NCBI GenBank assembly: GCA_945903265.1
Contig: CAMDNQ010000007.1
Location: forward strand, 26,111 to 90,110
DNA length: 64,000 nucleotides
DNA from: Candidatus Sulfopaludibacter sp. SbA3
GTDB taxonomy: Bacteria; Acidobacteriota; Vicinamibacteria; Vicinamibacterales; UBA2999
Reading direction: 5' to 3'
Of the stretch, positions 5,194 to 60,410 are shown one piece after another. The notes under the pieces were generated by a model, which made no database searches, was not told where the DNA came from, and worked only from the letters and a program-made list of their open reading frames with translations. Position 1 is the first letter of the stretch. Each line of letters begins with the position of its first letter. The translations under genes were made by a program, and so were the position numbers.

Positions 5194-5493
5194 TCAGCTA
5201 CGGCCTTTCCAATAACCTGGGCAGCGACTCGTGTGCGCGACGGCGACGACGTACATGTCGTCGTCGCGGACTCGATACACGACTTTATAGGGAAATCCAC
5301 TGACGAGGAGTTGCCGGTTCGGGAGCCGACCGGTTCGTGGCGTCCCAACCTCTGGATGCGTCCGGATAAGGTCGATCGCCCGGACCACCGAATCGTAGAA
5401 GTCGGCGCCAAGCCCTGACCGTCGCGCCTCGTACCACAGCACGGCCGCGGATAACTCGTCCGAGGCAGGTGCGCTGTATTGAACCGGCTTCAC
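5194..5493 (-). CDS. RelE/ParE-family type II toxin
   Basis: 99 aa with family-like features (FYDSVVRAIDLIRTHPEVG, YKVVYRVRDDDMYVVAVAH). The GTG start overlaps the stop of the upstream small gene (GTGA). Confidence 0.75.
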   Translation of the reverse strand: MKPVQYSAPASDELSAAVLWYEARRSGLGADFYDSVVRAIDLIRTHPEVGTPRTGRLPNRQLLVSGFPYKVVYRVRDDDMYVVAVAHTSRCPGYWKGRS

Positions 5494-5726
5494 CGCCCGA
5501 GAATGTCTTTCTCGATTCGGCGTCGCACGTTGTCCCAGGGTTCAAGGGGAATGGTACCGGCCTCAATGGCCGCGATGCGACGCTCGATTTCGGCATCCCA
5601 CGCAGCCTCTGCGTCGATGTCAGCGGGGCCATCAAGGCTCGCGACCAGTTCGGCCGCAAGTTCGGCGCGCGCCGCATCATCGAGGCGTAGCGCATCGGCC
5701 AGGACCGCGGCCATCGGCTTCGTCAT
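5490..5726 (-). CDS. putative addiction-module antitoxin (TIGR02574-like)
   Basis: 78-aa acidic protein with DAEAAWDAEIERRIAAIEAGT, typical of this antitoxin family. Has a 4-nt overlap with the toxin gene. Confidence 0.65.
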   Translation of the reverse strand: MTKPMAAVLADALRLDDAARAELAAELVASLDGPADIDAEAAWDAEIERRIAAIEAGTIPLEPWDNVRRRIEKDILGR

Positions 5727-20850: not shown

Positions 20851-22050
20851 TTACCGCGGCGGTGTTGCGGTCTTCCGGGACGGATTGAAGAACGGCGTCG
20901 GAACGACTGTGGCGCCCACGCGATGCCGCGCGGCCTCGACGGTCATCTCCATCTCGAGCCGTGTCCCCGGCGCGTAAAACGGCGCGTCGATCGTGGCCAG
21001 CGCGATGAGCCGCTTCAGCATCGGCGACCAGGTGGTCGTCGTCGCCCGTCCGACCTGCTGTCCATCGCGTGTGACCGGCACCGCGACGCGGGAGGCCGCC
21101 GAGGGCGCAACCGGTGTCAGGCCGATGCGGTCGTGAACGGATTCCACGTCGGTCCAATCGACTTCGAGCCCCACAACCATCTTCGACGCCCCTCGCCGCT
21201 GTTCGGCGGCCAGCGCGTCGCGCCCCACGAACGGACGTTTGTCGAGCGTGACCAGCCGGCCGAGGCCCATCTCGAGGGGCGAATATTTCTGCGCCTCGAT
21301 GAACGCCTTTCGGCTGCTATTGAAGTCCACGTCGATGAGGAGAAGTCCGGCCTCGACTCTTGCCACGTCGAGCGCCAGCATCCCGGCCGGCTTGATGTCG
21401 AACGGCCGTCCTCCGGCGATCAGCGCGTCCCATACCCCGAGCGCCGCGTCTGCGGGCATCCAGATTTCATACCCGAGGTCGCCCGTGTATCCGGTGCGCG
21501 AGATCTCGACCGGCACGCCGCCGATGCGCCCTCTGGTCAGCCGGAAATAGCGGAGGGAATCGACGTCCGCATCCGCGACGGCGCGCAGCACCTGCGCTGA
21601 CGTCGGGCCCTGAAGCGCCAGCGCCACGACCTCTTCCGAAATGTCGTCGATCGTGACATTCAACCCGGCTGCGTTCTGCCGGAACCACCGCAGACTGGGA
21701 TCCGCCGCCGTCCACCGATAGACCGACTCCTCGAGTCGCGCGACCGTCCCATCGTCGATGACCTTGCCCGCCTCGTCGCACCAGGGGGTGTACCAGACCT
21801 GGCCGATCGTCATCCTGGTGGCGTCGCGGGTGATCACCCGGTCCACCAGGCGCATCGCATCGATGCCGCTGACGCGGTACTTGAAGAGGGGTGAAATGTC
21901 GATGAGCGCGGCGGCGTTGCGGATGGCGTTGTATTCGTGCTCGTGGTGCGACTCGTACGCGCTGACCGCGTAGTAGCCCGACCATTCGCGGTAATTGAGC
22001 GACTCGCAGAGAGGAAACGTCCGCGGATGGAAGGCGGTTCCGACCGGCAC
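20851..22050 (-). CDS. aminomethyltransferase (GcvT) family protein
   Basis: EYNAIRNAAALIDISPLFKYRVSGIDAMRLVDRVITRD is a typical GcvT/DmdA-like N-terminal domain. 399 aa. Confidence 0.78.
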   Translation of the reverse strand: MPVGTAFHPRTFPLCESLNYREWSGYYAVSAYESHHEHEYNAIRNAAALIDISPLFKYRVSGIDAMRLVDRVITRDATRMTIGQVWYTPWCDEAGKVIDDGTVARLEESVYRWTAADPSLRWFRQNAAGLNVTIDDISEEVVALALQGPTSAQVLRAVADADVDSLRYFRLTRGRIGGVPVEISRTGYTGDLGYEIWMPADAALGVWDALIAGGRPFDIKPAGMLALDVARVEAGLLLIDVDFNSSRKAFIEAQKYSPLEMGLGRLVTLDKRPFVGRDALAAEQRRGASKMVVGLEVDWTDVESVHDRIGLTPVAPSAASRVAVPVTRDGQQVGRATTTTWSPMLKRLIALATIDAPFYAPGTRLEMEMTVEAARHRVGATVVPTPFFNPSRKTATPPR

Positions 22051-22075
22051 GGGGAGATCTTATGCCGACGACCGC

Positions 22076-23119
22076 GTGGTACGATGCGCACCCGGAACCG
22101 CCTTGGACAACAGGGCTCACCTCACTCGCCGCACTTGGCTCCGCCGCGCTCTCGCCGTGACGATGACGGTCGCCGCGCACCCTCTGCATGCCAGGCAGCA
22201 GATGCAGACGCACATGCCTCCAGGCATGCCGCCTCGCGCCAAGGGCCCCCTCGTCTTTCTCGACTACGACCAGCAGGAGCTGGACGCGGCGTACGACCAG
22301 GTGCACTGGGCGCCGAATCAGGCGGAGATCGCCAGGCGCGTCGCGCAGCGCAACGTGGCGACGCTCGCGCGGATTGGACCGCCGAAGCGCTTCTCGTACG
22401 GCCCAACGCCCGTCGAACAACTCGACGTGTATGTCACCCGCCAGCCACGCGCGCCGGTGCACGTGCACATCCATGGCGGCGCATGGCGCGAAGGCGTTGC
22501 ATCCGCATCGGCATATTTGTCCGAGGTGTTCGTCGATCACGGTGCCCACTTTGTCGCAGTCGATTTCAACAACGTGCTGGAAACCAAGGGCGACCTCATG
22601 ACGCTGGCCCGCCAGGTGCGCCGTGCTGTTGCATGGGTCTCCGCGAACGCCGGAATGTTCGGCGGAGATGGGAACCGGCTTTATGTTTCGGGCTTCTCCT
22701 CTGGCGGCCACCTCGCCGCTGTCGCCGCGACCACCGACTGGGCCCGCGATTTCAAGCTGCCCGCCGGCATCATCACGGGGGCACTCTTCTGCAGCGGTAT
22801 GTACGACCTCGAGCCTGTCAGCCTGTCGGCTCGACGGACATATGTGAACTTCACGCGCGAGACGATCGACGAGCTGAGTCCTGAACGGCACCTGGCGCGC
22901 CTGCCCGCGTCGGTCATCGTCGCCCACGGCACACTCGAGACACCCGAGTTTCAGCGTCAGAACCGGCAGTTCGCCGCGGCGGTGAAGGCTGCCGGCAAGT
23001 CCGCGACGCTGCTGATTGGCGAGGGCTACAACCATTTCGAGATGATCGAAACGCTTGGCAGTCCGTATGGGCTGCTCGGCCGCGCCGCGCTGCAGCAGAT
23101 GAACCTGACGCGGTCGTGA
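22076..23119 (+). CDS. arylformamidase-like alpha/beta hydrolase
   Basis: HGGAWREG oxyanion motif and GFSSGGHLAA nucleophile elbow. The start is ambiguous: GTG 22076 gives a Tat-like TRRTWLRRALAV leader, while ATG 22163 gives none. Confidence 0.68.
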   Translation: MVRCAPGTALDNRAHLTRRTWLRRALAVTMTVAAHPLHARQQMQTHMPPGMPPRAKGPLVFLDYDQQELDAAYDQVHWAPNQAEIARRVAQRNVATLARIGPPKRFSYGPTPVEQLDVYVTRQPRAPVHVHIHGGAWREGVASASAYLSEVFVDHGAHFVAVDFNNVLETKGDLMTLARQVRRAVAWVSANAGMFGGDGNRLYVSGFSSGGHLAAVAATTDWARDFKLPAGIITGALFCSGMYDLEPVSLSARRTYVNFTRETIDELSPERHLARLPASVIVAHGTLETPEFQRQNRQFAAAVKAAGKSATLLIGEGYNHFEMIETLGSPYGLLGRAALQQMNLTRS

Positions 23120-24696
23120 CGCGCGAGTACGACGTCATTGTGATTGGCGGGGGCCACAACGGTCTCACCGCTGCCGCGTATCTGGCCCGCGCCGGTCGCA
23201 AGGTCCTCGTCCTCGAGCGGCGGCACGTGCTTGGCGGCGCCGCGGTCACCGAAGAAGTCTTCCCCGGATTCAAGTTCTCGGTCTGCTCCTACGTCGTGTC
23301 CCTCCTGCGGCCAGAGATCATCCGCGAGCTCGACCTGACGCGGCACGGACTCGAGATCCTCCCGCTGGACGGCACGTTCACGCCCATGCCGGACGGCAAT
23401 CACCTCTGGCGCATGAACGACCACGCCAGAACCCGCCGTGAAATCACGCGTCACTCCAGGGTCGACGCGGAGGCCTACGACGAATACGGCAAGGCGATGG
23501 TCGACATGGGACGGTTCGTCAAGCCGATCCTGACCATGCTGCCGCCGGATCCGACGTCGATCCATCCACGCGACCTGCGGAAGCTGCTGTTCCTCGTCGA
23601 GCGTTTTCGCGACCTCTCACGCCAGGACCAGTACAACCTGGTCCAGCTGATGACGATGAGCGCGGTCGACTTTCTCGATCAGTGGTTCGAGACGGACGTG
23701 CTCAAGGCGACGATGTCCGCATCCGGCATCATCGGGACCTTTCTCGGAGTCCGATCGCCGGGGACGGCGTACGTGCTGCTGCACCACTACATGGGCGAGA
23801 TCGATGGCGCATTCCGCTCATGGGGCCTCTCGCGCGGTGGCACGGGCGCGATCTCCGAGTCGATCGCCAGCGCTGCACGCCTGGCCGGCGTCGAGATTCG
23901 GACGCAGGCCGCGGTCGCGGGCATCACGATTCGGGACAATATCGCGCGCGGTATCGTCCTCGACAATGGCGACGAGATTGCCGCGAAGGTCGTGGCCTCG
24001 AGCCTGGATCCGCGCCAGACATTCGTGCGCTTCATCGACCGCGGCGTCCTTCCGGCCGATTTTCAGGACGATATCGATCGCTACAAGTTCCGCGGGTCGT
24101 CCGGCAAGGTGAACCTGGCGCTCGACGCACTGCCTGACTTCACCTGCATGCCGGGCACCGGCGCGCATCTTCGCGGCGCGATCTCCATTTCTCCGAGCGT
24201 CGATTACATGGAGCGCGCGTACGACTCGGCCAAGTACGGCCGGTTCTCACGCCGTCCGTATATCGACGTCGTGATTCCGTCGCTGACCGATCCGAGCGTC
24301 GCGCCGCCCGGCAAGCATGTGATGTCCTGCTTCGTCCAGTACGCGCCGTACGACCTCAGGGAAGGAACGTGGGACGAGAAACGCGAGGAGTTCGGCGATA
24401 CGGTCATTCAGACCCTCGCGGAATACGCGCCCAACCTGCCCGGGATCGTCCGCGACCGTCAGGTGCTCACCCCGCTCGACCTCGAACGCGAGTGGGGCCT
24501 CTCGGAGGGGAACATCTTCCAGGGTGAGCTCACGCTGGAGCAGCTCTTCTTCCTGCGGCCCGCGCCGGGATGGTCGCAGTACCGCACCCCCGTCAGCCAG
24601 CTCTATATGTGCGGGTCGGCCACGCATCCGGGCGGTGGCATCATGGGCGCGCCGGGCCGCAACGCGGCGCTTCGCATCCTGGCGGACACGAAATGA
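23116..24696 (+). CDS. CrtI/PYROXD2-like FAD-dependent oxidoreductase, paralog 1
   Basis: YDVIVIGGGHNGLTAAAYLARAG Rossmann motif. C-terminal LYMCGSATHPGGGIMGAPG. The GTGA start overlaps the hydrolase stop. Confidence 0.8.
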   Translation: MTREYDVIVIGGGHNGLTAAAYLARAGRKVLVLERRHVLGGAAVTEEVFPGFKFSVCSYVVSLLRPEIIRELDLTRHGLEILPLDGTFTPMPDGNHLWRMNDHARTRREITRHSRVDAEAYDEYGKAMVDMGRFVKPILTMLPPDPTSIHPRDLRKLLFLVERFRDLSRQDQYNLVQLMTMSAVDFLDQWFETDVLKATMSASGIIGTFLGVRSPGTAYVLLHHYMGEIDGAFRSWGLSRGGTGAISESIASAARLAGVEIRTQAAVAGITIRDNIARGIVLDNGDEIAAKVVASSLDPRQTFVRFIDRGVLPADFQDDIDRYKFRGSSGKVNLALDALPDFTCMPGTGAHLRGAISISPSVDYMERAYDSAKYGRFSRRPYIDVVIPSLTDPSVAPPGKHVMSCFVQYAPYDLREGTWDEKREEFGDTVIQTLAEYAPNLPGIVRDRQVLTPLDLEREWGLSEGNIFQGELTLEQLFFLRPAPGWSQYRTPVSQLYMCGSATHPGGGIMGAPGRNAALRILADTK

Positions 24697-26249
24697 CCGT
24701 CGTCGTGATCGGCGGCGGACACAACGGACTTGCCGCGGCGTTCTATCTCGCACGCGCCGGCCTCAAGCCAATCGTGATCGAACAGCGATCGACCGTCGGC
24801 GGCGGCGCCATCACCGGAGAACTGCAGCCGGGTTTCAAGTGCCCAACGCTCACACACCATGCGGCCATCGGGTCCGACATTGCGGCCGAGATGGATCTCG
24901 CGCGCCACGGACTCGACGTCCTGCGTCCCGTCGTCGATGTCTTCATCCCGGCGCCAGACGGTCCGGCTGCCGTGATGTACGTCGATGCCGCCCGCACGGC
25001 CGACGCACTGCGGCCGACGGCGCCCCGCGACGCCGAGGCATTTCTCAAGTATCGGGCGGCCATGACGGCCGTCGGCGGCGTCGTCGAGGCCTTGTTGACC
25101 GCTCCGCCGCCGGATGTCGATAGCCTCGATCCGCGCGACCTCTGGAATCTGCTGGGCGTGGGACGGCGCTTCCGCGCGCTCGGAAAGCAGGACGCCTATC
25201 GCCTCCTCCGGTGGGCGCCAATGCCGGTGGCCGATTTCGTCACGGAATGGTTTGAGTCGCCTCTGCTCCGCGCGGCGGTCTGCGGTTCGGGAGTCTCGGG
25301 GACCATGCTGGGCCCCCGGTCGGCCGGATCCACGCTGGTCCATCTTCTGCGCGACGCACACAGGCGGATGTCGGGCGGACGCATGCAGGTCCGCGGCGGC
25401 CCCGGAGCATTGACGCAGGCGATGGCAGCCGCCGCTCGGGGCGCCGGTGCCGACATCCGGGTGGGTAGCCGCGTGGACCGGATCGCCGTCGCCAATGGAG
25501 CCGTCACCGCGGTGACGGTCGACGGCCGCGACATCGCCTCCGATGCGGTGGTCTCGGCGGCCGATCCCAAAGCGACCTGCCTCGGCCTTCTCGACCCTCT
25601 CGACCTGTCGCCAGACTTCCTCTCGAAGATGGGCAACGTCCGGTCGGCAGGGACGGTCGCCAAAGTAAACCTGGCACTCTCGGCGCTGCCATCATTCGGC
25701 GCGGCGAACGCGGAGCTTCTGTCCGGCAGCATTCACATCGGACCCGACGTCGACGCCATCGAGCATGCCTTTGACCATGCGAAGTACGGCGAGCTGTCAG
25801 AAGAGCCGTGGCTCGACGTGACAATCCCGTCGGTGCTCGATCCGTCCCTCGTGCCTCCGGGCGCCCACGTCATGTCGGTATATGTCCACTACGCCCCGTA
25901 TCGGCTTCGCGGCGCCAGCTGGGATTTAATGAAGGAGATGGTGCTGACGCGAACCATGGCGATGCTCGAGCGGTATGCGCCTGGCATCGGTGCACTCGTG
26001 ATCGCCGCGGAGGTCATCACGCCCGCTGAGCTCGAGTCCACATACGGCTTCGTGGGAGGCCACATGTTTCATGGGGAACTCTCGATCGACCAGTTATTCA
26101 CGATGCGGCCGCTCCTCGGGTTCGGTGGCTACAGCACGCCCGTCCGCGGACTGTACTTGTGTGGGAGCGGCACTCACCCAGGGGGATTCATGTCCGGTGT
26201 CAGCGGTAAGCTCGCGGTCAACGCCGTCCTTACAGGGATGAAGAGATGA
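24693..26249 (+). CDS. CrtI/PYROXD2-like FAD-dependent oxidoreductase, paralog 2
   Basis: MTVVVIGGGHNGLAAAFYLARAG. C-terminal LYLCGSGTHPGGFMSGVSG. ATGA overlap with paralog 1. The track ORF start at 24570 was rejected. Confidence 0.8.
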   Translation: MTVVVIGGGHNGLAAAFYLARAGLKPIVIEQRSTVGGGAITGELQPGFKCPTLTHHAAIGSDIAAEMDLARHGLDVLRPVVDVFIPAPDGPAAVMYVDAARTADALRPTAPRDAEAFLKYRAAMTAVGGVVEALLTAPPPDVDSLDPRDLWNLLGVGRRFRALGKQDAYRLLRWAPMPVADFVTEWFESPLLRAAVCGSGVSGTMLGPRSAGSTLVHLLRDAHRRMSGGRMQVRGGPGALTQAMAAAARGAGADIRVGSRVDRIAVANGAVTAVTVDGRDIASDAVVSAADPKATCLGLLDPLDLSPDFLSKMGNVRSAGTVAKVNLALSALPSFGAANAELLSGSIHIGPDVDAIEHAFDHAKYGELSEEPWLDVTIPSVLDPSLVPPGAHVMSVYVHYAPYRLRGASWDLMKEMVLTRTMAMLERYAPGIGALVIAAEVITPAELESTYGFVGGHMFHGELSIDQLFTMRPLLGFGGYSTPVRGLYLCGSGTHPGGFMSGVSGKLAVNAVLTGMKR

Positions 26250-26776
26250 CACCCGACCTGCGATACCCCGTGGGCACGTTTGACTACTCCGTTGTTCCGG
26301 CTCCGGAACTTCGGCAACCGGCGATTGCGACGATGGCCGCCTTGCCCGCGCGTATGCGCGACGCGGTCAACGGACTGGACGACCGCCAGCTCGATACGCC
26401 GTACCGCCACGGTGGCTGGACCGTGCGTCAGGTCGTCCACCACGTCGTCGACAGTCACGCGAACGGTTTCCTCCGCACGAAGTTTGGACTGACGGAGGAC
26501 ACGCCGACCATCAAGCCGTACGACGAGAAGACCTGGGCGACGCTGGCGGACAGCCGGATGCCAGTCGATGCATCACTGGCAATCCTTGACGGATTGCACG
26601 CCCGGTGGGCGGAAATCTGGCGATCGCTGGACAACGCGCAGTTCTTGCGCACGTTTGTCCATCCTGAGATCGGCATCGTGACGCTGGAGAAGCAGCTTCA
26701 GGGTTACGCGTGGCATTCACGGCATCACGTCGCGCACATCACGGAACTTCGCCGGCGCGAGGGCTGGCTAAGGTAG
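26246..26776 (+). CDS. DinB/YfiT-family putative thiol (bacillithiol) S-transferase
   Basis: PYRHGGWTVRQVVHHVVDSHANGF and WHSRHHVAHI His-rich metal-site motifs, as in YfiT/BstA. ATGA overlap with the upstream gene. Confidence 0.75.
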   Translation: MTPDLRYPVGTFDYSVVPAPELRQPAIATMAALPARMRDAVNGLDDRQLDTPYRHGGWTVRQVVHHVVDSHANGFLRTKFGLTEDTPTIKPYDEKTWATLADSRMPVDASLAILDGLHARWAEIWRSLDNAQFLRTFVHPEIGIVTLEKQLQGYAWHSRHHVAHITELRRREGWLR

Positions 26777-26788
26777 GATAGGCACGGC

Positions 26789-27100
26789 ATGGCGGCACCG
26801 AAACCCAGAGACAAAGACGATCGCGAGATTGGCGACGCGCTCGGCATGATCGAGACGCGGGGACTCATCGGCATGATCGAGGCGGCCGACGCCATGCTGA
26901 AGACCGCCAACGTCGTGCTCGTCAGCTGGCAGAAGGTGGATGCGGGCCTCGTGACGGCGCTCATCCGCGGCGACGTGGGGTCCGTGAAGGCCGCGACCGA
27001 TGCGGGTGCCGCGGCGGCCCGCCGGGTAGGCGAGCTGATCGGCGTGCATGTCATTGCGCGCCCCTCCGACGACCTCGAAAAAATCTTCCCGATTCGCTGA
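26789..27100 (+). CDS. bacterial microcompartment shell protein, BMC-H (PduA/EutM/CcmK fold)
   Basis: [29 protein letters not shown]...[40 protein letters not shown] aligns almost residue for residue with PduA as I remember it. An AGGTAGGA Shine-Dalgarno lies about 10 nt upstream. Confidence 0.9.
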
Positions 27101-27131
27101 CGCCCAGTCTGGGTTCGCGCAGGACAGCGCG

Positions 27132-28193
27132 TCAGTCCGTCGCGCGGACGGCCCAGCGCAACTTTGCGGACGAAGCGCGCCGGTTCGCGCGGTTTTCTTC
27201 CATCGTCGCCCGAATGACCTCACCCGCCACGTCGGCATACACATCCGCTCGATAGCCGGCCTGGAATGCCTTCTTCACACGCCGGTCTTCGCCGGAGTGA
27301 AACGTCAGTATGGCCACTCGACCGCCTGGCGCGAGGCACTGCGGCAGCGACCGCAGCAGCGCATCGAGCGCGGAGAATTCGTCGTTCACGGCGATGCGTA
27401 GCGCCTGGAGCGTGCGGCGGACGGACATCTTCATCTCGGGCGTCGCCAGACTCGGAAACGCCGCGGTGAGCCCGTTGCGCACCAGACGGTCGACCTCGTG
27501 CGTCGTCTCCACCGGCCCCTGCTTCAGGAGACGGGCGATGAGATCGGCGTGCGGTTCATCGGCATTCTCGTCCAGCAGGGCCGCAAGCTTGTCTTCGCTC
27601 ACTCGCGCGAGGAGTCTCGACGCCGGCTCTCCACGCGATGGATTCATCCGCATGTCGAGCTGGCCGAAGTGTTTGTAGCTGAAGCCGCGATCGGGATTGT
27701 CGAGCTGCATGGACGACACGCCCAGGTCCGCCAGGATTAGGTCAGCGGCCGCGACTCCCTCAGTGGCGAGCACCTGCGGCAAACCCGCAAAGTTCATGTG
27801 GTGGGCGACGAACGTCTCGGGGCCGAAGCCGGCCGCGCGGAGACGTGCTTCGGTGCGGGGCAACTCGAGCGGATCGACGTCGAGTCCAAGCAGGCGGCCG
27901 CCGGGTTGGACGCGCTCCAGGATCGCTCGCGCATGACCGCCGCCGCCGAGCGTGCAGTCCACCGCGACCTCGCCGGCGCTGGGCTGAAGGCAGCGCAGGA
28001 CTTCCGCCACCATGATGGGCCGATGCGTCCCCGCCGGCGTCTTGCCGGACGCGAGGATCTTCTCCACGTCCGCGTGGTACTTCTCGGGGTTGAGTTCCTT
28101 GTACCTCTCATGGAACCCACGCGGGTTTCTGCCCGGGTATCGCGGGCGCCGTGTGTGCCCCTGCGGCGAGTCAGACGGATTCTTCAGCGCCAA
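27132..28193 (-). CDS. rsmH: RsmH (MraW)-family 16S rRNA m4C1402 methyltransferase homolog with N-terminal extension
   Basis: HRPIMVAEVL, DCTLGGGGHA, DLGVSSMQLD and TFHSGEDRRVKK motifs. About 55 extra N-terminal residues if the TTG at 28193 is used; GTG 28067 is an alternative start. Confidence 0.78.
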   Translation of the reverse strand: MALKNPSDSPQGHTRRPRYPGRNPRGFHERYKELNPEKYHADVEKILASGKTPAGTHRPIMVAEVLRCLQPSAGEVAVDCTLGGGGHARAILERVQPGGRLLGLDVDPLELPRTEARLRAAGFGPETFVAHHMNFAGLPQVLATEGVAAADLILADLGVSSMQLDNPDRGFSYKHFGQLDMRMNPSRGEPASRLLARVSEDKLAALLDENADEPHADLIARLLKQGPVETTHEVDRLVRNGLTAAFPSLATPEMKMSVRRTLQALRIAVNDEFSALDALLRSLPQCLAPGGRVAILTFHSGEDRRVKKAFQAGYRADVYADVAGEVIRATMEENRANRRASSAKLRWAVRATD

Positions 28194-28206: not shown

Positions 28207-28677
28207 TCACGGCTTGCGGACGATCGCCCGAGTGCGACGCTTGCGCTCGCGTGCGACGACCGGCCGGATCGGCAATTCCTCCCCCACCATCAGCAGCGGC
28301 TGCGACGGATCTTCGAGGTTGAAGACCCGCCCGTCTTCCGTACGCGCGTACAGCTGATCCCCGCCAATGAGCAGGGTCAACGGCCCGTCGTCACCGATCG
28401 CCTCATAGAGACGGACGCCAAACCGATCGCGCAGCGTGCCGAGCAGGCGGCGCAGCTGGGGGATCGAAAACCCGCGCCGTCGTAAATCGGCGAGCACCTG
28501 CAACTCGAGCACGTCCAGAGGCGTATAACGACGCTCCGTGAAGCCGCCTGCTTCCGTCTTGTGCGTCGCCACCGCGGCCCTGAAGAGCCGGCGCGAGTCC
28601 CACCATTGCAGCTGGCGTGCGGTCAGGCCCGTCAGGCCGGCCACTTCCCGCGACGTGTAGTGCTTCTTCAGTCTCAC
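28207..28677 (-). CDS. MerR-family transcriptional regulator
   Basis: N-terminal HTH YTSREVAGLTGLTARQLQWWDSRRLF. GTG start 4 nt after the upstream stop. Confidence 0.7.
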   Translation of the reverse strand: MRLKKHYTSREVAGLTGLTARQLQWWDSRRLFRAAVATHKTEAGGFTERRYTPLDVLELQVLADLRRRGFSIPQLRRLLGTLRDRFGVRLYEAIGDDGPLTLLIGGDQLYARTEDGRVFNLEDPSQPLLMVGEELPIRPVVARERKRRTRAIVRKP

Positions 28678-28681
28678 GGGA

Positions 28682-29773
28682 TCACAGGCCGAACCGATCG
28701 GGCCGGACGAGATCCAGCCCTTCGCCGCGCGTACCGGTCAGAACGAGATCGGCTACGACCGATGCCGTCCAGGGGGCGAGCAACACACCATTGCGGTAAT
28801 GCCCGGTCGCGTAGAACACTCCGCGCATTGTGGAGGAAGGGCCGATGATCGGCAACTCGTCGACCGTCGCCGGCCGCAAGCCCGCGCGTGCTTCGACGAA
28901 CGTCGCCATTCGAAGCTTCGGAGCGAGCCGCTCACCGCTGGCGCGGAGGGACCGAACGGCCTTCTGGGTCACCCGTTCGTTGAAACCGACATCCTCGACG
29001 GTGGCGCCAACGAGGACGGTTCCGTTCGTCCACGGGACGAGGTAGCACGCGGAGCCCCAGACGACCCGCTGCAGCGCGCCCGGCGAGGCGTGGAGTTGCA
29101 CGAGTTGACCGCGGACGGGGCGGACCGGCGCTGGTGGCCCCGCCGTTGCGATGCCACCCGACCAGCTCCCCGCGGCGATGATGACGGCGTCACACGTCAC
29201 ATCACCATCGGTTGTCGTCACGGTGACCCGGCCTGCCGTGGCCGCGACCGCCTCGACGTTAGTCACGACGGGCGTCACTCCGCGTCGTGCTCCCGCGGCC
29301 ACGAGCGTGGTCATCAGGCTCGAAACGCCCACGTATCCGTGCTGCGGAACGAGCAGGCCGGCGCGGGCGTCGGACGCGACCCCGGGCTCGAGCCGCGCGA
29401 TGTCGCTGGTCGATACGAGCGAGTGGTCGACCTGTGCCCGCGCGAGCCGGCCCGCCTGCGCCTCGAGTTCCCTCACTTCATCCTGGTCGAGCGCGATCTG
29501 AAGCGTCCCGGTGCGGCGGTACTCCAGGTCGAGCCGCGCGTCGGCGGCGAGCCTGGCCAGGAAGTTGTCGTACTGGTTCAGACTGGCGATGCCGAGCTGG
29601 AGGAGCGCGTCGGAATGTCCCTCGATATAGGGCGCGAGAATCCCGGCTGACGCCCGCGTCGCGCCCTCGCCATGACCACGGGGATCGACGATGCGTACGT
29701 GCGCCCCACGCGCGGCCATTTCGTAGGCGACGGCATAGCCGATGACACCGGCGCCCACCACGACGACGTCCAC
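28682..29773 (-). CDS. glycine oxidase ThiO-like FAD-dependent oxidoreductase (DAO family)
   Basis: VVVVGAGVIGYAVAYEMAARG dinucleotide-binding motif. C-terminal GHYRNGVLLAP, typical of ThiO. No thiS/thiG neighbours. Confidence 0.7.
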   Translation of the reverse strand: MDVVVVGAGVIGYAVAYEMAARGAHVRIVDPRGHGEGATRASAGILAPYIEGHSDALLQLGIASLNQYDNFLARLAADARLDLEYRRTGTLQIALDQDEVRELEAQAGRLARAQVDHSLVSTSDIARLEPGVASDARAGLLVPQHGYVGVSSLMTTLVAAGARRGVTPVVTNVEAVAATAGRVTVTTTDGDVTCDAVIIAAGSWSGGIATAGPPAPVRPVRGQLVQLHASPGALQRVVWGSACYLVPWTNGTVLVGATVEDVGFNERVTQKAVRSLRASGERLAPKLRMATFVEARAGLRPATVDELPIIGPSSTMRGVFYATGHYRNGVLLAPWTASVVADLVLTGTRGEGLDLVRPDRFGL

Positions 29774-57670: not shown

Positions 57671-58930
57671 CTAGATGATAGCGGGAGCGCCCTGGCGGAA
57701 GTCGCCGCCGAGCAGCGAGACGGAATTCGCGCCAAGCCATCCGTCGAGGATGCGCGAGTAGACGGCGCGGAAGTCGGTCTCGTAGCGCACGTCGTTGCCC
57801 GCGTTCTCGAGCGTCGGATTGGCCGCATTCGGATCGAGCGATGCCGCGGTCCCGTAGATGCCTCCGCGGACACCGCCACCCATCGCCATCATGACCCCCG
57901 CGGCGCCGTGATCGGTACCCTGGCTGCCGTTTTCGCTGATGCGACGGCCGAACTCGGAGAACTGCAGGACGAGCGTGTCGTTGAGCAAGCCCTGGTTGCG
58001 GAGGTCCGTGTAGAACGCGGAGAGGCCGTCGCTGAACGTGCCCATGAGATTCGCGTACGAGCCGCCTCCGGCGTTCCCCTGGCCCGCGTGCGTATCGAAT
58101 CCACCAGTCTGCACCCAGTAGACCTTCGTGCCGATCCCGCGGACCATCGAGCCGGCGACCGTGCGCAGCGCGAGCGCAAAGCCGTTGTTGGGATATGCCA
58201 CGGACGGGGCGTACGTATTGACCGTTCCGACGCGATCCAGCGTGTCGAGCGCGCCCTTGATCGAACCGTTGACGAACGAGAGATGCGGGCGGTTCACCGA
58301 CACGTGCGACGCGATGCGGGTGGCCGCGGTCCGTTCGTTGAGCGCCTCGGCGCCGCTGTTCGGGCTCGAGAGGCTGTACGTGCGGGCGTCGGGAATTGCC
58401 GGCACCGAAACGAGACGCGATATCAGGGCGCGCGGGGTTTCACGCGTCGCGTTCCACCCCGCCAGCGCGTCGACCGGCGACGGCAGTGTGTCGAGGTAGC
58501 GTCCCAGCCAGCCTACGCCGGTAGGCGCATTGGGGTCGGCGGTGCCGTAAATGTCGAGCCCCTGGAAGTGCGAACGGCTGGAGTTCGTGTATCCGGTGCG
58601 CTGGATGACCGCGAGACGTCCCTCGTTGAAGATGTCCCGGAGGCCCGTCATCCGCGGATGAAGACCGAGCGTCTTGCCGGTCCGATCGCTGCCGATCTGC
58701 AGCACCTGTCCCGCCGGAATCGCAATCGCCGGGCGGCGGCTGTAATAGAACGGATCCTGATACGGGATGACCGTACTGAGCGCATCGTTGCCGCCGCTCA
58801 GATAGACGACGACCAGGTTGCGGCCGCGAACACCCTGCGCCAGCGCGAGATCGCTGAGGAACGCGGGCGCGGCAAAGCTGACGGTGAACGCCGCGACGCC
58901 GTCACGAATGAAGTCTCGTCGCGTAATCAC
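57671..58930 (-). CDS. DUF1501 (sulfatase-like) protein with Tat signal
   Basis: ITRRDFIRDG Tat motif. GGFDTHA motif. I chose the GTG start at 58930, which has GAGGA 5 nt upstream and no overlap. The track start is TTG 58969. Confidence 0.78.
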   Translation of the reverse strand: MITRRDFIRDGVAAFTVSFAAPAFLSDLALAQGVRGRNLVVVYLSGGNDALSTVIPYQDPFYYSRRPAIAIPAGQVLQIGSDRTGKTLGLHPRMTGLRDIFNEGRLAVIQRTGYTNSSRSHFQGLDIYGTADPNAPTGVGWLGRYLDTLPSPVDALAGWNATRETPRALISRLVSVPAIPDARTYSLSSPNSGAEALNERTAATRIASHVSVNRPHLSFVNGSIKGALDTLDRVGTVNTYAPSVAYPNNGFALALRTVAGSMVRGIGTKVYWVQTGGFDTHAGQGNAGGGSYANLMGTFSDGLSAFYTDLRNQGLLNDTLVLQFSEFGRRISENGSQGTDHGAAGVMMAMGGGVRGGIYGTAASLDPNAANPTLENAGNDVRYETDFRAVYSRILDGWLGANSVSLLGGDFRQGAPAII

Positions 58931-58937
58931 GGCATCC

Positions 58938-60410
58938 TCAAATGAACTGGTACTCGGCAGCGCCGACAATCAGCCTGACGAGTCCCGCGACTTTCGCATT
59001 CACCTGCGCGTCCGATCCGGTCCATTGCGCGATGCCGGCGCGCGCATAACTCTGCAGCTCCCGGTACGGCGCGAACTCGAACGCCGCCGGCGTGAGCTTC
59101 TCCAGCAGGAACCAGTCGAGCAGGGTATCGGGGGACGAGCGCACCCCGCCCACCGCCCGGGCTACATTGAAGCGCTGGTTCGACGCGAGCGAGGCGGCGA
59201 AATTCATTCGCGCGAGCATGGCCCCGGTCGAAAACCATCCGAGACCCAGCTCCCAGCCGTTGACGTCCGGCGGCTCGAAGAGCGTCTGTCCCATGTTGGT
59301 GAGCGGCGTCCGGACGCTGTCGATGGAGAAGCCGGTCCAGCCGACTTCGCGAATCGATCGAATGACGAATTCAGCCGGCCAGGAGTAACGCCCGAACCAG
59401 CGATCGGGATGGGTGAACCACCGGGATTGGAGGATGAAGCGCACGAGGGGCTTCATCTCCGTGTTGCCGCGCAGGTACTCGGTCGCGACGGCTTCGACGA
59501 ACGCCGGGTCTGGCGCCTCGAGCTCACTGACGAAAAAATTCCACAGCTTGCGGGCCAGCCGTCGCGCGGTTTCCGGATGGGTCGCCAGCGCCGTGATCAG
59601 GTCGATCCCGTCCTGCATGCCATCGGCCGCCGCGCGCGCGGGAATCGTCCTGCTGCCGCTGGAAGACACCGGGAACGTAAACGTCTTCTCGGTCGGGTCG
59701 TGCTGCGCGGCGTTGTAGAAAAATTCGTAATAGGTGTTCGGGTCGTCGTTGCGGCCACCGGCCGTCGCGAGCCGAAGGTTCCAGCCGGTAAACACACGCG
59801 CCGCCGCGTAGACGTCCGCCTCGGTGTAATTGCCGACGCCAAACGTGAAGAGCTCCATGATCTCGCGGCCGAAGTTTTCCTGCGGGCGCGCACGGACGTT
59901 CGTGCGGCCGTCGAGCCAGACCACCATCGCGGGATCTTTCGCCACTTCGACGAGGAGGTTGCGGAAGTTACCGAGTGCAAACTGACGGAACAGCTCGATC
60001 TGCCCCTGCGGGCCTGGCAGCTCGCCCGACTTGAGCGCCATCATCTTCGTCGCCTGCACGGCGCCATAGACGCCAGCGATCTTGCTGTACGCCGTCGCGA
60101 AATGGTTGTGCCAGAAGAGCGCCATCTTTTCCTGGAGCGGACGCTCCGAGTGCGCCATCCGGAACAGCCACCGCTGCCGCGCGTGATCGATGTTGGTGTT
60201 GGGCGAGAACGCGCCACCACTCTGCACGACACCGACATAGTCGGCATTGCCGATCTTCGCGTCGACGTCGTCCGCCTGGCGCTCGTAGTTCACCAGGTGA
60301 TCGACGACCGCCGCCGGCGAGACGGTGGCAAAACGCGCGAGATCGGCCGCACTCGGGCCGAACCCCCCGCGCCGGAGCACATGCTCGACGGGCCAGTTCT
60401 CTCTAGGCAT
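58938..60410 (-). CDS. DUF1800 family protein
   Basis: HVLRRGGFGPS and EKMALFWHNHFATA are typical of DUF1800. Canonical pairing with the downstream DUF1501 gene. Confidence 0.78.
   Translation of the reverse strand: MPRENWPVEHVLRRGGFGPSAADLARFATVSPAAVVDHLVNYERQADDVDAKIGNADYVGVVQSGGAFSPNTNIDHARQRWLFRMAHSERPLQEKMALFWHNHFATAYSKIAGVYGAVQATKMMALKSGELPGPQGQIELFRQFALGNFRNLLVEVAKDPAMVVWLDGRTNVRARPQENFGREIMELFTFGVGNYTEADVYAAARVFTGWNLRLATAGGRNDDPNTYYEFFYNAAQHDPTEKTFTFPVSSSGSRTIPARAAADGMQDGIDLITALATHPETARRLARKLWNFFVSELEAPDPAFVEAVATEYLRGNTEMKPLVRFILQSRWFTHPDRWFGRYSWPAEFVIRSIREVGWTGFSIDSVRTPLTNMGQTLFEPPDVNGWELGLGWFSTGAMLARMNFAASLASNQRFNVARAVGGVRSSPDTLLDWFLLEKLTPAAFEFAPYRELQSYARAGIAQWTGSDAQVNAKVAGLVRLIVGAAEYQFI

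Follow-up and report, generated by a model that had tools for sequence, protein, structure and literature searches.

A lone BMC-H gene at the end of a packed enzyme gene chain in Vicinamibacterales: a probable satellite of an ACI-type bacterial microcompartment

Bacterial microcompartments (BMCs) of the ACI type have been described in the Acidobacteria only, mainly in subdivisions 4 and 6 (Sutter et al. 2021, Nat Commun 12:3809, PMC8217296). Besides a BMC-P triplet and one or more BMC-H genes, their main locus encodes an aldolase that ends in a C-terminal encapsulation peptide; the aldehyde dehydrogenase is encoded separately, in a satellite locus (Sutter et al. 2021, PMC8217296). In addition, ACI genomes occasionally hold another BMC-H "by itself" (Sutter et al. 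2021, PMC8217296, Supplementary Data 2). The β-carboxysomes provide a further case of BMC-H paralogues that are encoded outside the main locus, CcmK3 and CcmK4, which have been proposed to tune shell permeability (Sommer et al. 2017, J Exp Bot 68:3841). Here we analyze a BMC-H gene (26789..27100, + strand) that stands last in a chain of five genes in a 64-kb stretch of DNA from a member of the Vicinamibacterales (Acidobacteriota); we call this whole stretch the window and its own lineage the window lineage, and the loci with which it was compared carry L numbers. An initial annotation of the window had offered two explanations for this gene, a compartment for a flavin-dependent pathway formed by the enzymes encoded upstream, or a satellite shell gene that merely happens to be transcribed with them. 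By our analysis the gene is most likely nothing more than a satellite that supplies a shell protein to the ACI-type microcompartment of the Vicinamibacterales, and the enzymes encoded upstream are most likely not its cargo.

The window BMC-H protein (103 aa) matches the shell protein family PF00936 with 94.9 bits against a gathering score of 24.5 (E 3e-27). It has a single copy of the domain, whose residues 17–92 follow profile positions 1–75 in order, so that it is not circularly permuted. Its features are a charged 16-residue N-terminal extension, the pore sequence KVDAG, an edge lysine in the string AMLKTANV, and ARPS in place of PRPH. When motifs were compared in a table of 120 BMC-H sequences, these features proved to be common to a paralogue clade, which we call the "lone" clade: its members have charged N-terminal extensions of 12–17 residues, their pore is KVDAG where the main-locus ACI proteins have KIGAG or KIGSG, and RP[AS] replaces PRPH (the His being Ser or Ala clade-wide), with the edge Lys (D-x-x-x-K) and the Arg retained. 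The edge Lys and the Arg of (P)RPH serve hexamer–hexamer tiling, which the change of the His may or may not affect. The family is very abundant, with over 100 cluster representatives that have an identity of 85% or more to the window protein. No neighbouring gene is as well conserved: across species BMC-H is 79–93% identical, compared to 53–81% for the nearby MerR gene and 37–61% for the ThiO gene. The BMC-H gene is therefore under strong purifying selection and is no remnant.

About 20 distinct lone orthologous loci were found, whose BMC-H proteins are 73–100% identical to that of the window over the domain and all have the pore KVDAG or RVDAG. They make up the lone class L001–L024, of which L026 is a more distant member, and the closest loci in reference genomes (one genome per species, among the matches listed) belong to metagenome-assembled genomes (MAGs) of Vicinamibacterales, Acidobacteriota subdivision 6. 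Two other kinds of BMC-H locus are present in these bacteria. In more than 40 Acidobacteriota loci BMC-H is followed directly by a BMC-P triplet (the main-locus class, 61–71% identical), and in a third class, with the pore KEYIGAGYVT, an aldehyde dehydrogenase gene follows BMC-H. These three locus classes (lone, main and aldehyde dehydrogenase satellite) agree with the description of ACI by Sutter et al. (2021). Two of them occur together in the MAG SMAG_U3631, which has a lone ortholog (L022) and, on another contig (L072), genes for a class II aldolase, BMC-H and BMC-P, after which the contig ends; this single same-MAG pair, among the matches listed, shows that the co-occurrence of lone BMC-H and main locus exists and not how frequent it is. 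A relative with both loci, and the element resembling a –10 box before BMC-H that is described below, bear out the satellite shell gene of the initial annotation.

The absence of other shell and core enzyme genes from the window, also reported in the initial annotation, holds. Searches by tblastn with the BMC-H sequence and an approximate EutN query found no further shell gene in the 64 kb, and Pfam annotation of its left flank, centre and right flank found no BMC-P, BMC-T, aldehyde dehydrogenase, PTAC, RuBisCO or carbonic anhydrase; BMC-P (PF03319) is lacking from the 64-kb window and within ±10 kb of the orthologous loci L001–L024. One might imagine a genome without BMC-P or main locus, in which the paralogue works by itself, perhaps forming a sheet or tube. 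The clade is indeed distinct and very conserved, with its pore Asp, its N-terminal extension and no PRPH His, and no second BMC locus was found in 10 of the 11 reference genomes that bear orthologs (80 loci kept, among the matches listed). However, the clade has retained the edge Lys and Arg, which tiling with other shell proteins requires, one MAG holds a lone ortholog together with an ACI main locus, the Vicinamibacterales are one of the two main ACI-bearing groups, and ACI genomes are described as sometimes having a lone BMC-H in addition (Sutter et al. 2021, PMC8217296). We consider such an orphan unlikely.

The window genes were mapped onto 92 loci, every one of which was also searched for pentamer genes. 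Seen from the BMC-H side, it is the downstream genes that are constant. In the window these are a MerR-family regulator (28207-28677, – strand; Pfam MerR_1) and glycine oxidase ThiO (28682-29773, – strand; TIGR02352, 287 bits against a cut-off of 251). Most lone orthologs keep MerR and/or ThiO downstream (MerR and/or DAO in L002, L005, L013–L016, L018–L021, L024 and L117), so MerR/ThiO is a syntenic anchor, and the lone clade holds a fixed chromosomal neighbourhood. A pterin-4a-carbinolamine dehydratase gene is another frequent downstream neighbour of lone BMC-H in loci of the aldolase-like (DTA) type described below (L022, 10338–10658, – strand; L013; L015–L020). The gene immediately upstream, on the other hand, varies between loci. 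The commonest upstream run consists of DUF1800, DUF1501 and a pyridoxal phosphate (PLP) enzyme with the domains Ala_racemase_N and D-ser_dehydrat (L013, L016, L017, L019, L021 and L022). L018, L023 and L024 are variants of this arrangement, the last two with an unknown 222–232-aa protein immediately upstream of BMC-H, and L097, L117 and L124 likewise have a D-amino-acid aldolase-like PLP gene upstream. A CarboxypepD_reg gene is upstream in L005 and L015, and a MacB/FtsX permease gene in L020. The window has neither the orthologous DUF1800/DUF1501 pair nor the PLP enzyme. A different DUF1800/DUF1501 pair lies 30 kb away in the window (57671–60410, – strand); its members are paralogues, 27–33% identical to the pair of the relatives.

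The best NCBIfam match of the PLP enzyme is the 3-hydroxy-D-aspartate aldolase BhcC, below cut-off, and no obvious encapsulation peptide was seen in the enzyme of the relatives. Lone BMC-H is the last gene after such an enzyme of the D-threonine/3-hydroxy-D-aspartate aldolase family in many Vicinamibacterales. PLP-dependent aldolases of this family release an aldehyde and glycine, and we know of no aldehyde-generating signature enzyme, nor of a substrate, for the ACI microcompartment. It could be imagined that the lone BMC-H is a dedicated pore for D-hydroxy-amino acids, or a marker of the missing aldehyde-generating enzyme, or else an orphan shell protein without BMC-P, with the window flavoproteins uninvolved in each case; we give little credence to this set of possibilities. 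The frequent adjacency of a lone BMC-H to a D-amino-acid aldolase-like gene in an ACI-bearing group is nevertheless a lead of its own.

Another feature shared by the lone loci lies directly before the gene. In an alignment of the upstream DNA, 15 of 20 distinct loci have a hexamer (TAGAAT, TAGGAT, TAGACT, TAAGAT or TAGCAT) whose distance to the BMC-H start is 7–12 nt, whether a DinB gene, the PLP enzyme, CarboxypepD_reg or no gene is upstream. In the window it is TAGGAT (26774..26779, + strand), 9 nt 5' of the BMC-H start and overlapping the DinB stop, a candidate BMC-H promoter. As a control, TANNNT was sought 5–13 nt before the starts of the 28 called window genes and was present at just three of them. 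The other two are the GcvT-like gene that heads the divergent unit (TAAGAT, 22057–22062, – strand, 6 nt before its GTG start) and a small antitoxin-like gene (5490–5726, – strand). In L026, a complete chromosome, BMC-H is the sole + strand gene between two – strand genes, with TAGGAT within the ~105-nt intergenic region 5' of it; this BMC-H must have its own promoter, since it forms a single-gene unit. These observations suggest that the hexamer is a –10 element and that BMC-H has a promoter of its own, from which a leaderless or very-short-leader mRNA would be made. L006 had also been considered as a monocistronic BMC-H and was rejected, as its last ~210 upstream nt are identical to the 3' end of the L005 CarboxypepD_reg gene, and the contig, short and of low coverage, is possibly rearranged or chimeric. 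The initial annotation had placed a Shine-Dalgarno sequence, AGGTAGGA, in the 12-nt gap before BMC-H. The gap is real, and the motif spans the DinB stop; as the key signal it was discarded, because its GAGG/AGGT part is not conserved in the orthologs and the TAGAAT-like hexamer is. In the window TAGGAT or TAAGAT stands 6–9 nt before these three starts, and few genes have a recognisable Shine-Dalgarno sequence. This suggests that the Vicinamibacterales lineage of the window uses leaderless or very-short-leader mRNAs.

The gene chain itself is as first reported. All five open reading frames lie on the + strand, successive genes overlap by GTGA (23116-23119), ATGA (24693-24696) and ATGA (26246-26249), and the 12-nt gap, GATAGGCACGGC, separates the DinB stop TAG (26774-26776) from the BMC-H ATG. 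Before BMC-H the chain encodes an α/β hydrolase (an esterase of HSL/BD-FAE type, 22103..23119), flavoprotein 1 (526 aa, 23116..24696), which is a CrtI-superfamily FAD oxidoreductase with an amine-oxidase fold, its paralogue flavoprotein 2 (518 aa, 24693..26249), both with Pfam Amino_oxidase and NAD_binding_8 matches, and a DinB-superfamily protein of the YfiT family, annotated as a thiol S-transferase (176 aa, 26246..26776). The families first given for BMC-H, DinB/YfiT and the paralogous flavoprotein pair agree with Pfam and NCBIfam. Twenty public metagenome contigs carry an identical BMC-H in an identical gene arrangement.

Such tight same-strand packing, seen in the window and in the relatives closest to it, and the lack of a BMC-P gene within 64 kb speak for a minimal scaffold, in which sheets, tubes or a partial shell of lone BMC-H organise the hydrolase, the flavoproteins and DinB and confine a reactive electrophile. 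If true, this would be a new kind of organelle, flavoprotein-based, with no pentamer and no aldehyde or CO2 core. It is nevertheless highly improbable. The linkage between the enzymes and BMC-H is missing in nearly all relatives, tested from either side, and even the close relative L002 has 18 nt between the hydrolase and flavoprotein 1 genes where the window has an overlap. For dealing with a one-carbon electrophile, the flavoprotein pair comes with folate-based partners of its own, and the Tat-like (twin-arginine translocation) leader of the hydrolase appears to be translated. Moreover, the window enzymes are without the encapsulation peptide that is clear in the ACI aldolase. The initial annotation had suggested scanning the four enzymes for such peptides, and none was found: no linker and helix are appended to any of them. 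Family profiles cover residues 3–523 of the 526 of flavoprotein 1, 2–513 of the 518 of flavoprotein 2 and 5–174 of the 176 of DinB; since they span these proteins almost from end to end, there is no room for an encapsulation tag, and the sole extension of the hydrolase is its Tat-like leader. The same scan was positive for its control, the ACI aldolase of L072, which has a Pro/Gly-rich linker and then a C-terminal amphipathic helix, ELTALIEDAVRNLK. All four enzymes are ordinary unencapsulated proteins, three of them (the two flavoproteins and DinB) cytosolic and the fourth, the hydrolase, probably exported.

Flavoproteins 1 and 2 are 42–43% identical to each other. Their first description as CrtI-like holds for the superfamily, and the closest PDB structure of flavoprotein 1 is CrtI (4dgk), at only E 1e-15. 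It does not hold for the family: the two proteins score 117.8 and 110.4 bits against the cut-off of 238.1 of the CrtI family TIGR02734, and 305 and 241 bits against that of 1000 of the CrtO model (both NCBIfam). They are far below every CrtI-family cut-off, and the broad Amino_oxidase Pfam family is the only one whose threshold they pass. A literature search on PYROXD2-like bacterial flavoproteins found nothing relevant. Divergent from the enzyme genes lies the GcvT-family gene (20851..22050, – strand), whose product resembles folate-dependent aminomethyltransferases; it has the Pfam domains GCV_T and GCV_T_C, and its best NCBIfam matches, the C-terminal domain of trimethylamine N-oxide demethylase and GcvT, are both below cut-off.

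The linkage was also examined from the flavoprotein side, by an alignment of flavoprotein 1 orthologs that gave 80 soil metagenome loci (L095–L174, 76–83% identity). Flavoprotein 2 adjoins flavoprotein 1 in 64 of the 80, many of the others being short contigs that end near flavoprotein 1, and the GcvT-like gene is divergently upstream of flavoprotein 1 in 45. DinB is present in one locus. BMC-H is present in four and never adjacent, being 3–5 genes away; in three of these four, GNAT and/or DUF1800, DUF1501 and the PLP enzyme intervene, and in the fourth (L128) two CarboxypepD_reg genes, GNAT and DinB lie between the flavoproteins and BMC-H. At least 10 flavoprotein loci with at least 8 kb of downstream sequence have no BMC-H. 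Conversely, the lone loci L021, L022 and L024 have the GcvT-like gene and the flavoprotein pair 5–8 kb upstream of BMC-H, with 3–5 genes between. A conserved five-gene linkage, which the initial annotation had proposed to look for among relatives, was not found: the upstream neighbours of BMC-H vary, and none of the 80 flavoprotein loci has the two side by side. With the linkage lost in relatives, no encapsulation peptides and the pair at home in a different gene set, the compartment for a flavin pathway finds no support; the loss of linkage, the main locus in the MAG of a relative and the predicted promoter of BMC-H are largely the findings that the initial annotation had itself named as counting against it.

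These neighbour counts across 80 loci make the flavoprotein pair a conserved unit of its own. Recurrent among the clustered neighbours of these loci are PurU, a Rieske oxygenase alpha subunit, two families of APC (amino-acid) permeases and a methyltransferase. Clusters for tetrahydrofolate-linked N-demethylation include sarcosine or dimethylglycine oxidases/dehydrogenases with a GcvT-like domain, PurU and Rieske oxygenases of the GbcA type. The gene context suggests that the pair removes methyl groups oxidatively from an N-methylated amine or amino acid, in a cytosolic pathway linked to tetrahydrofolate in which the GcvT-like folate protein would trap the formaldehyde unit. A widespread and uncharacterised flavoprotein pair with folate-linked partners in soil metagenomes is a second lead from this analysis.

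The DinB protein, whose gene directly precedes BMC-H in the window, matches Pfam DinB_2 (E 2e-22) and scores 228.9 bits against the cut-off of 160 of the NCBIfam model PRK13291, YfiT (bacillithiol transferase); it is a member of the YfiT family with a predicted thiol-transferase function. DinB is directly upstream of BMC-H only in the window lineage, L128 and L014, with gaps of 12–15 nt in the three. L128 has a BMC-H 96% and a DinB 65% identical to those of the window, and its pair follows a divergent GNAT gene; the values for L014 are 81–88% and 61%, and there an MFS transporter gene precedes DinB. L014 (CAYNUO010000015.1) is labelled "uncultured Bifidobacteriaceae", yet it is syntenic with Vicinamibacterales in DinB, BMC-H, MerR, ThiO, LOG and MetK (85% identity), and it is probably mis-binned. 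The adjacency in these three loci would fit a two-gene DinB/BMC-H module of one subclade, for example for thiol-dependent chemistry at or in the shell, with the flavoproteins as bystanders. We think this quite unlikely, a little more so than an orphan BMC-H, because BMC-H genes of the same clade have other upstream genes (L005, 93% identical; L013, 88%; L015), DinB residues 5–174 match YfiT profile positions 1–172, so that the protein spans the 172-position profile with 4 and 2 residues to spare and has no encapsulation peptide, and the conserved hexamer overlaps or abuts the DinB stop, which suggests separate initiation.

The hydrolase has a Pfam match to BD-FAE/Abhydrolase_3 (E 1e-17) and contains the HGGAW and GFSSGGH motifs on which its first label, arylformamidase-like, was based; the label is loose, as lipase 9n8r is the closest PDB structure (E 6e-24) and kynurenine formamidase is a weaker match (E 6e-9). 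Besides 22103, its gene has possible starts at GTG 22076, TTG 21995 and ATG 22202, and the gene caller used for the public contig chose 22202 (305 aa). The Tat-like leader noted initially, MDNRAHLTRRTWLRRALAVTMTVAAHPLHA, lies 5' of that start, and TRRTWLRRALAVTMTVAAHPLHA is inside the hydrolase N-terminus only if translation begins at 22076 or 22103. A Tat leader was taken to be a translated twin-arginine motif S/T-R-R-x-F-L-K, then a hydrophobic stretch and then a site of the A-x-A type. The window leader differs from that of L002 by four substitutions, of which three are at codon position 3 and one changes Leu to Ile or the reverse; RRxWL is kept. By this substitution pattern the leader is probably translated in spite of the downstream start of the gene caller, and the enzyme is probably exported via the Tat pathway. 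None of the 80 flavoprotein loci has the hydrolase gene, nor do L021, L022 and L024; it is a recent insertion restricted to the immediate lineage of the window.

On the other side of BMC-H, the window has a convergent gene for an RsmH-family methyltransferase (27132..28193, – strand; NCBIfam TIGR00006, 208 bits against a cut-off of 154). It sits between BMC-H and MerR in the window lineage only, is absent from L002 and all other relatives, and is outside the conserved block. Its product has ~55 extra N-terminal residues, and since the gene lies outside its usual cell-division cluster context, the genome may hold another copy. In the 31 nt that separate the convergent genes BMC-H and RsmH there is an inverted repeat, CTGACGC...GCGTCAG (within 27098–27140), and a GC-rich hairpin followed by a T-run is present on the + strand inside the RsmH 3' end (27175–27200). 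Either could end the BMC-H transcripts; in a terminator scan, terminator-like matches were no commoner than in shuffled sequence. The five-gene chain is a lineage-specific juxtaposition and contraction, in which the genes that separate the flavoproteins from BMC-H in relatives are missing and the hydrolase gene has been inserted, and the case cautions against over-reading tight gene packing in a single genome.

Several points weigh against this interpretation of the locus as a whole. The ACI main locus is seen in the MAG of a relative, SMAG_U3631, and not in the part of the window's own genome that was covered, 64 kb of a 148-kb contig, and the window BMC-H is a candidate member of the catalog class H_marine, that of the lone BMC-H of ACI genomes. 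The BMC-H promoter is a sequence prediction: no –35 box is evident before the gene, and a scan for sigma-70 two-hexamer promoters found none. Whatever internal promoter is present, a gap of 12 nt makes read-through co-transcription of BMC-H with the enzyme genes likely. The DinB/BMC-H adjacency recurs in three lineages (window, L128 and L014), and a specific relation between the two may exist. Finally, the demethylation role of the flavoproteins is a proposal from gene context. A satellite shell gene of an ACI-type microcompartment remains by far our preferred explanation. The lone BMC-H would be built into shells that are encoded elsewhere, by the locus for the aldolase, BMC-H and BMC-P triplet and by the satellite for BMC-H and aldehyde dehydrogenase, and through its acidic pore it would change the pore properties or permeability of the shell. 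This pore-tuning role is proposed by analogy, because of the CcmK3/CcmK4 satellite precedent and the altered pore residues. A clearly delimited clade of acidic-pore BMC-H paralogues, with a probable promoter of its own, in abundant soil Acidobacteria is a further lead.

How, then, does this gene compare with the known systems? Like PduA and EutM, it has one PF00936 domain, arranged in the standard order, with the edge lysine of the AMLKTANV string and a GDVG(S/A) core, and EutM is its best NCBIfam match (122 bits, below the equivalog cut-off of 133); unlike them, it has KVDAG and not KIGSG at the pore, ARPS and not PRPH, and a charged N-terminal extension of 16 residues. The tetrahydrofolate-linked N-demethylation clusters resemble the other half of the window locus, as genes for a GcvT-family protein, PurU, a Rieske alpha subunit and amino-acid permeases accompany the flavoprotein pair, but the window flavoproteins are of a CrtI/PYROXD2-like branch and not of the DAO/SoxB type; the likeness is one of gene context. 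With CcmK3 and CcmK4 the window BMC-H shares its place as a satellite paralogue, altered pore residues and, presumably, separate regulation; it differs from them in belonging to another microcompartment type and phylum and in being a single gene and not a pair, and its function in ACI is a proposal by analogy. The lone BMC-H of ACI genomes (Sutter et al. 2021) is the closest parallel: the host is of subdivision 6, the BMC-H gene stands singly with neither BMC-P nor a core enzyme in its vicinity, and its interface motifs are for the most part standard. That ACI genomes can have a lone BMC-H was known; what is added here are the features of the KVDAG clade with its pore and N-terminal extension, the fixed MerR/ThiO neighbourhood and the –10-like hexamer, which set the window gene apart from the ACI catalog description.

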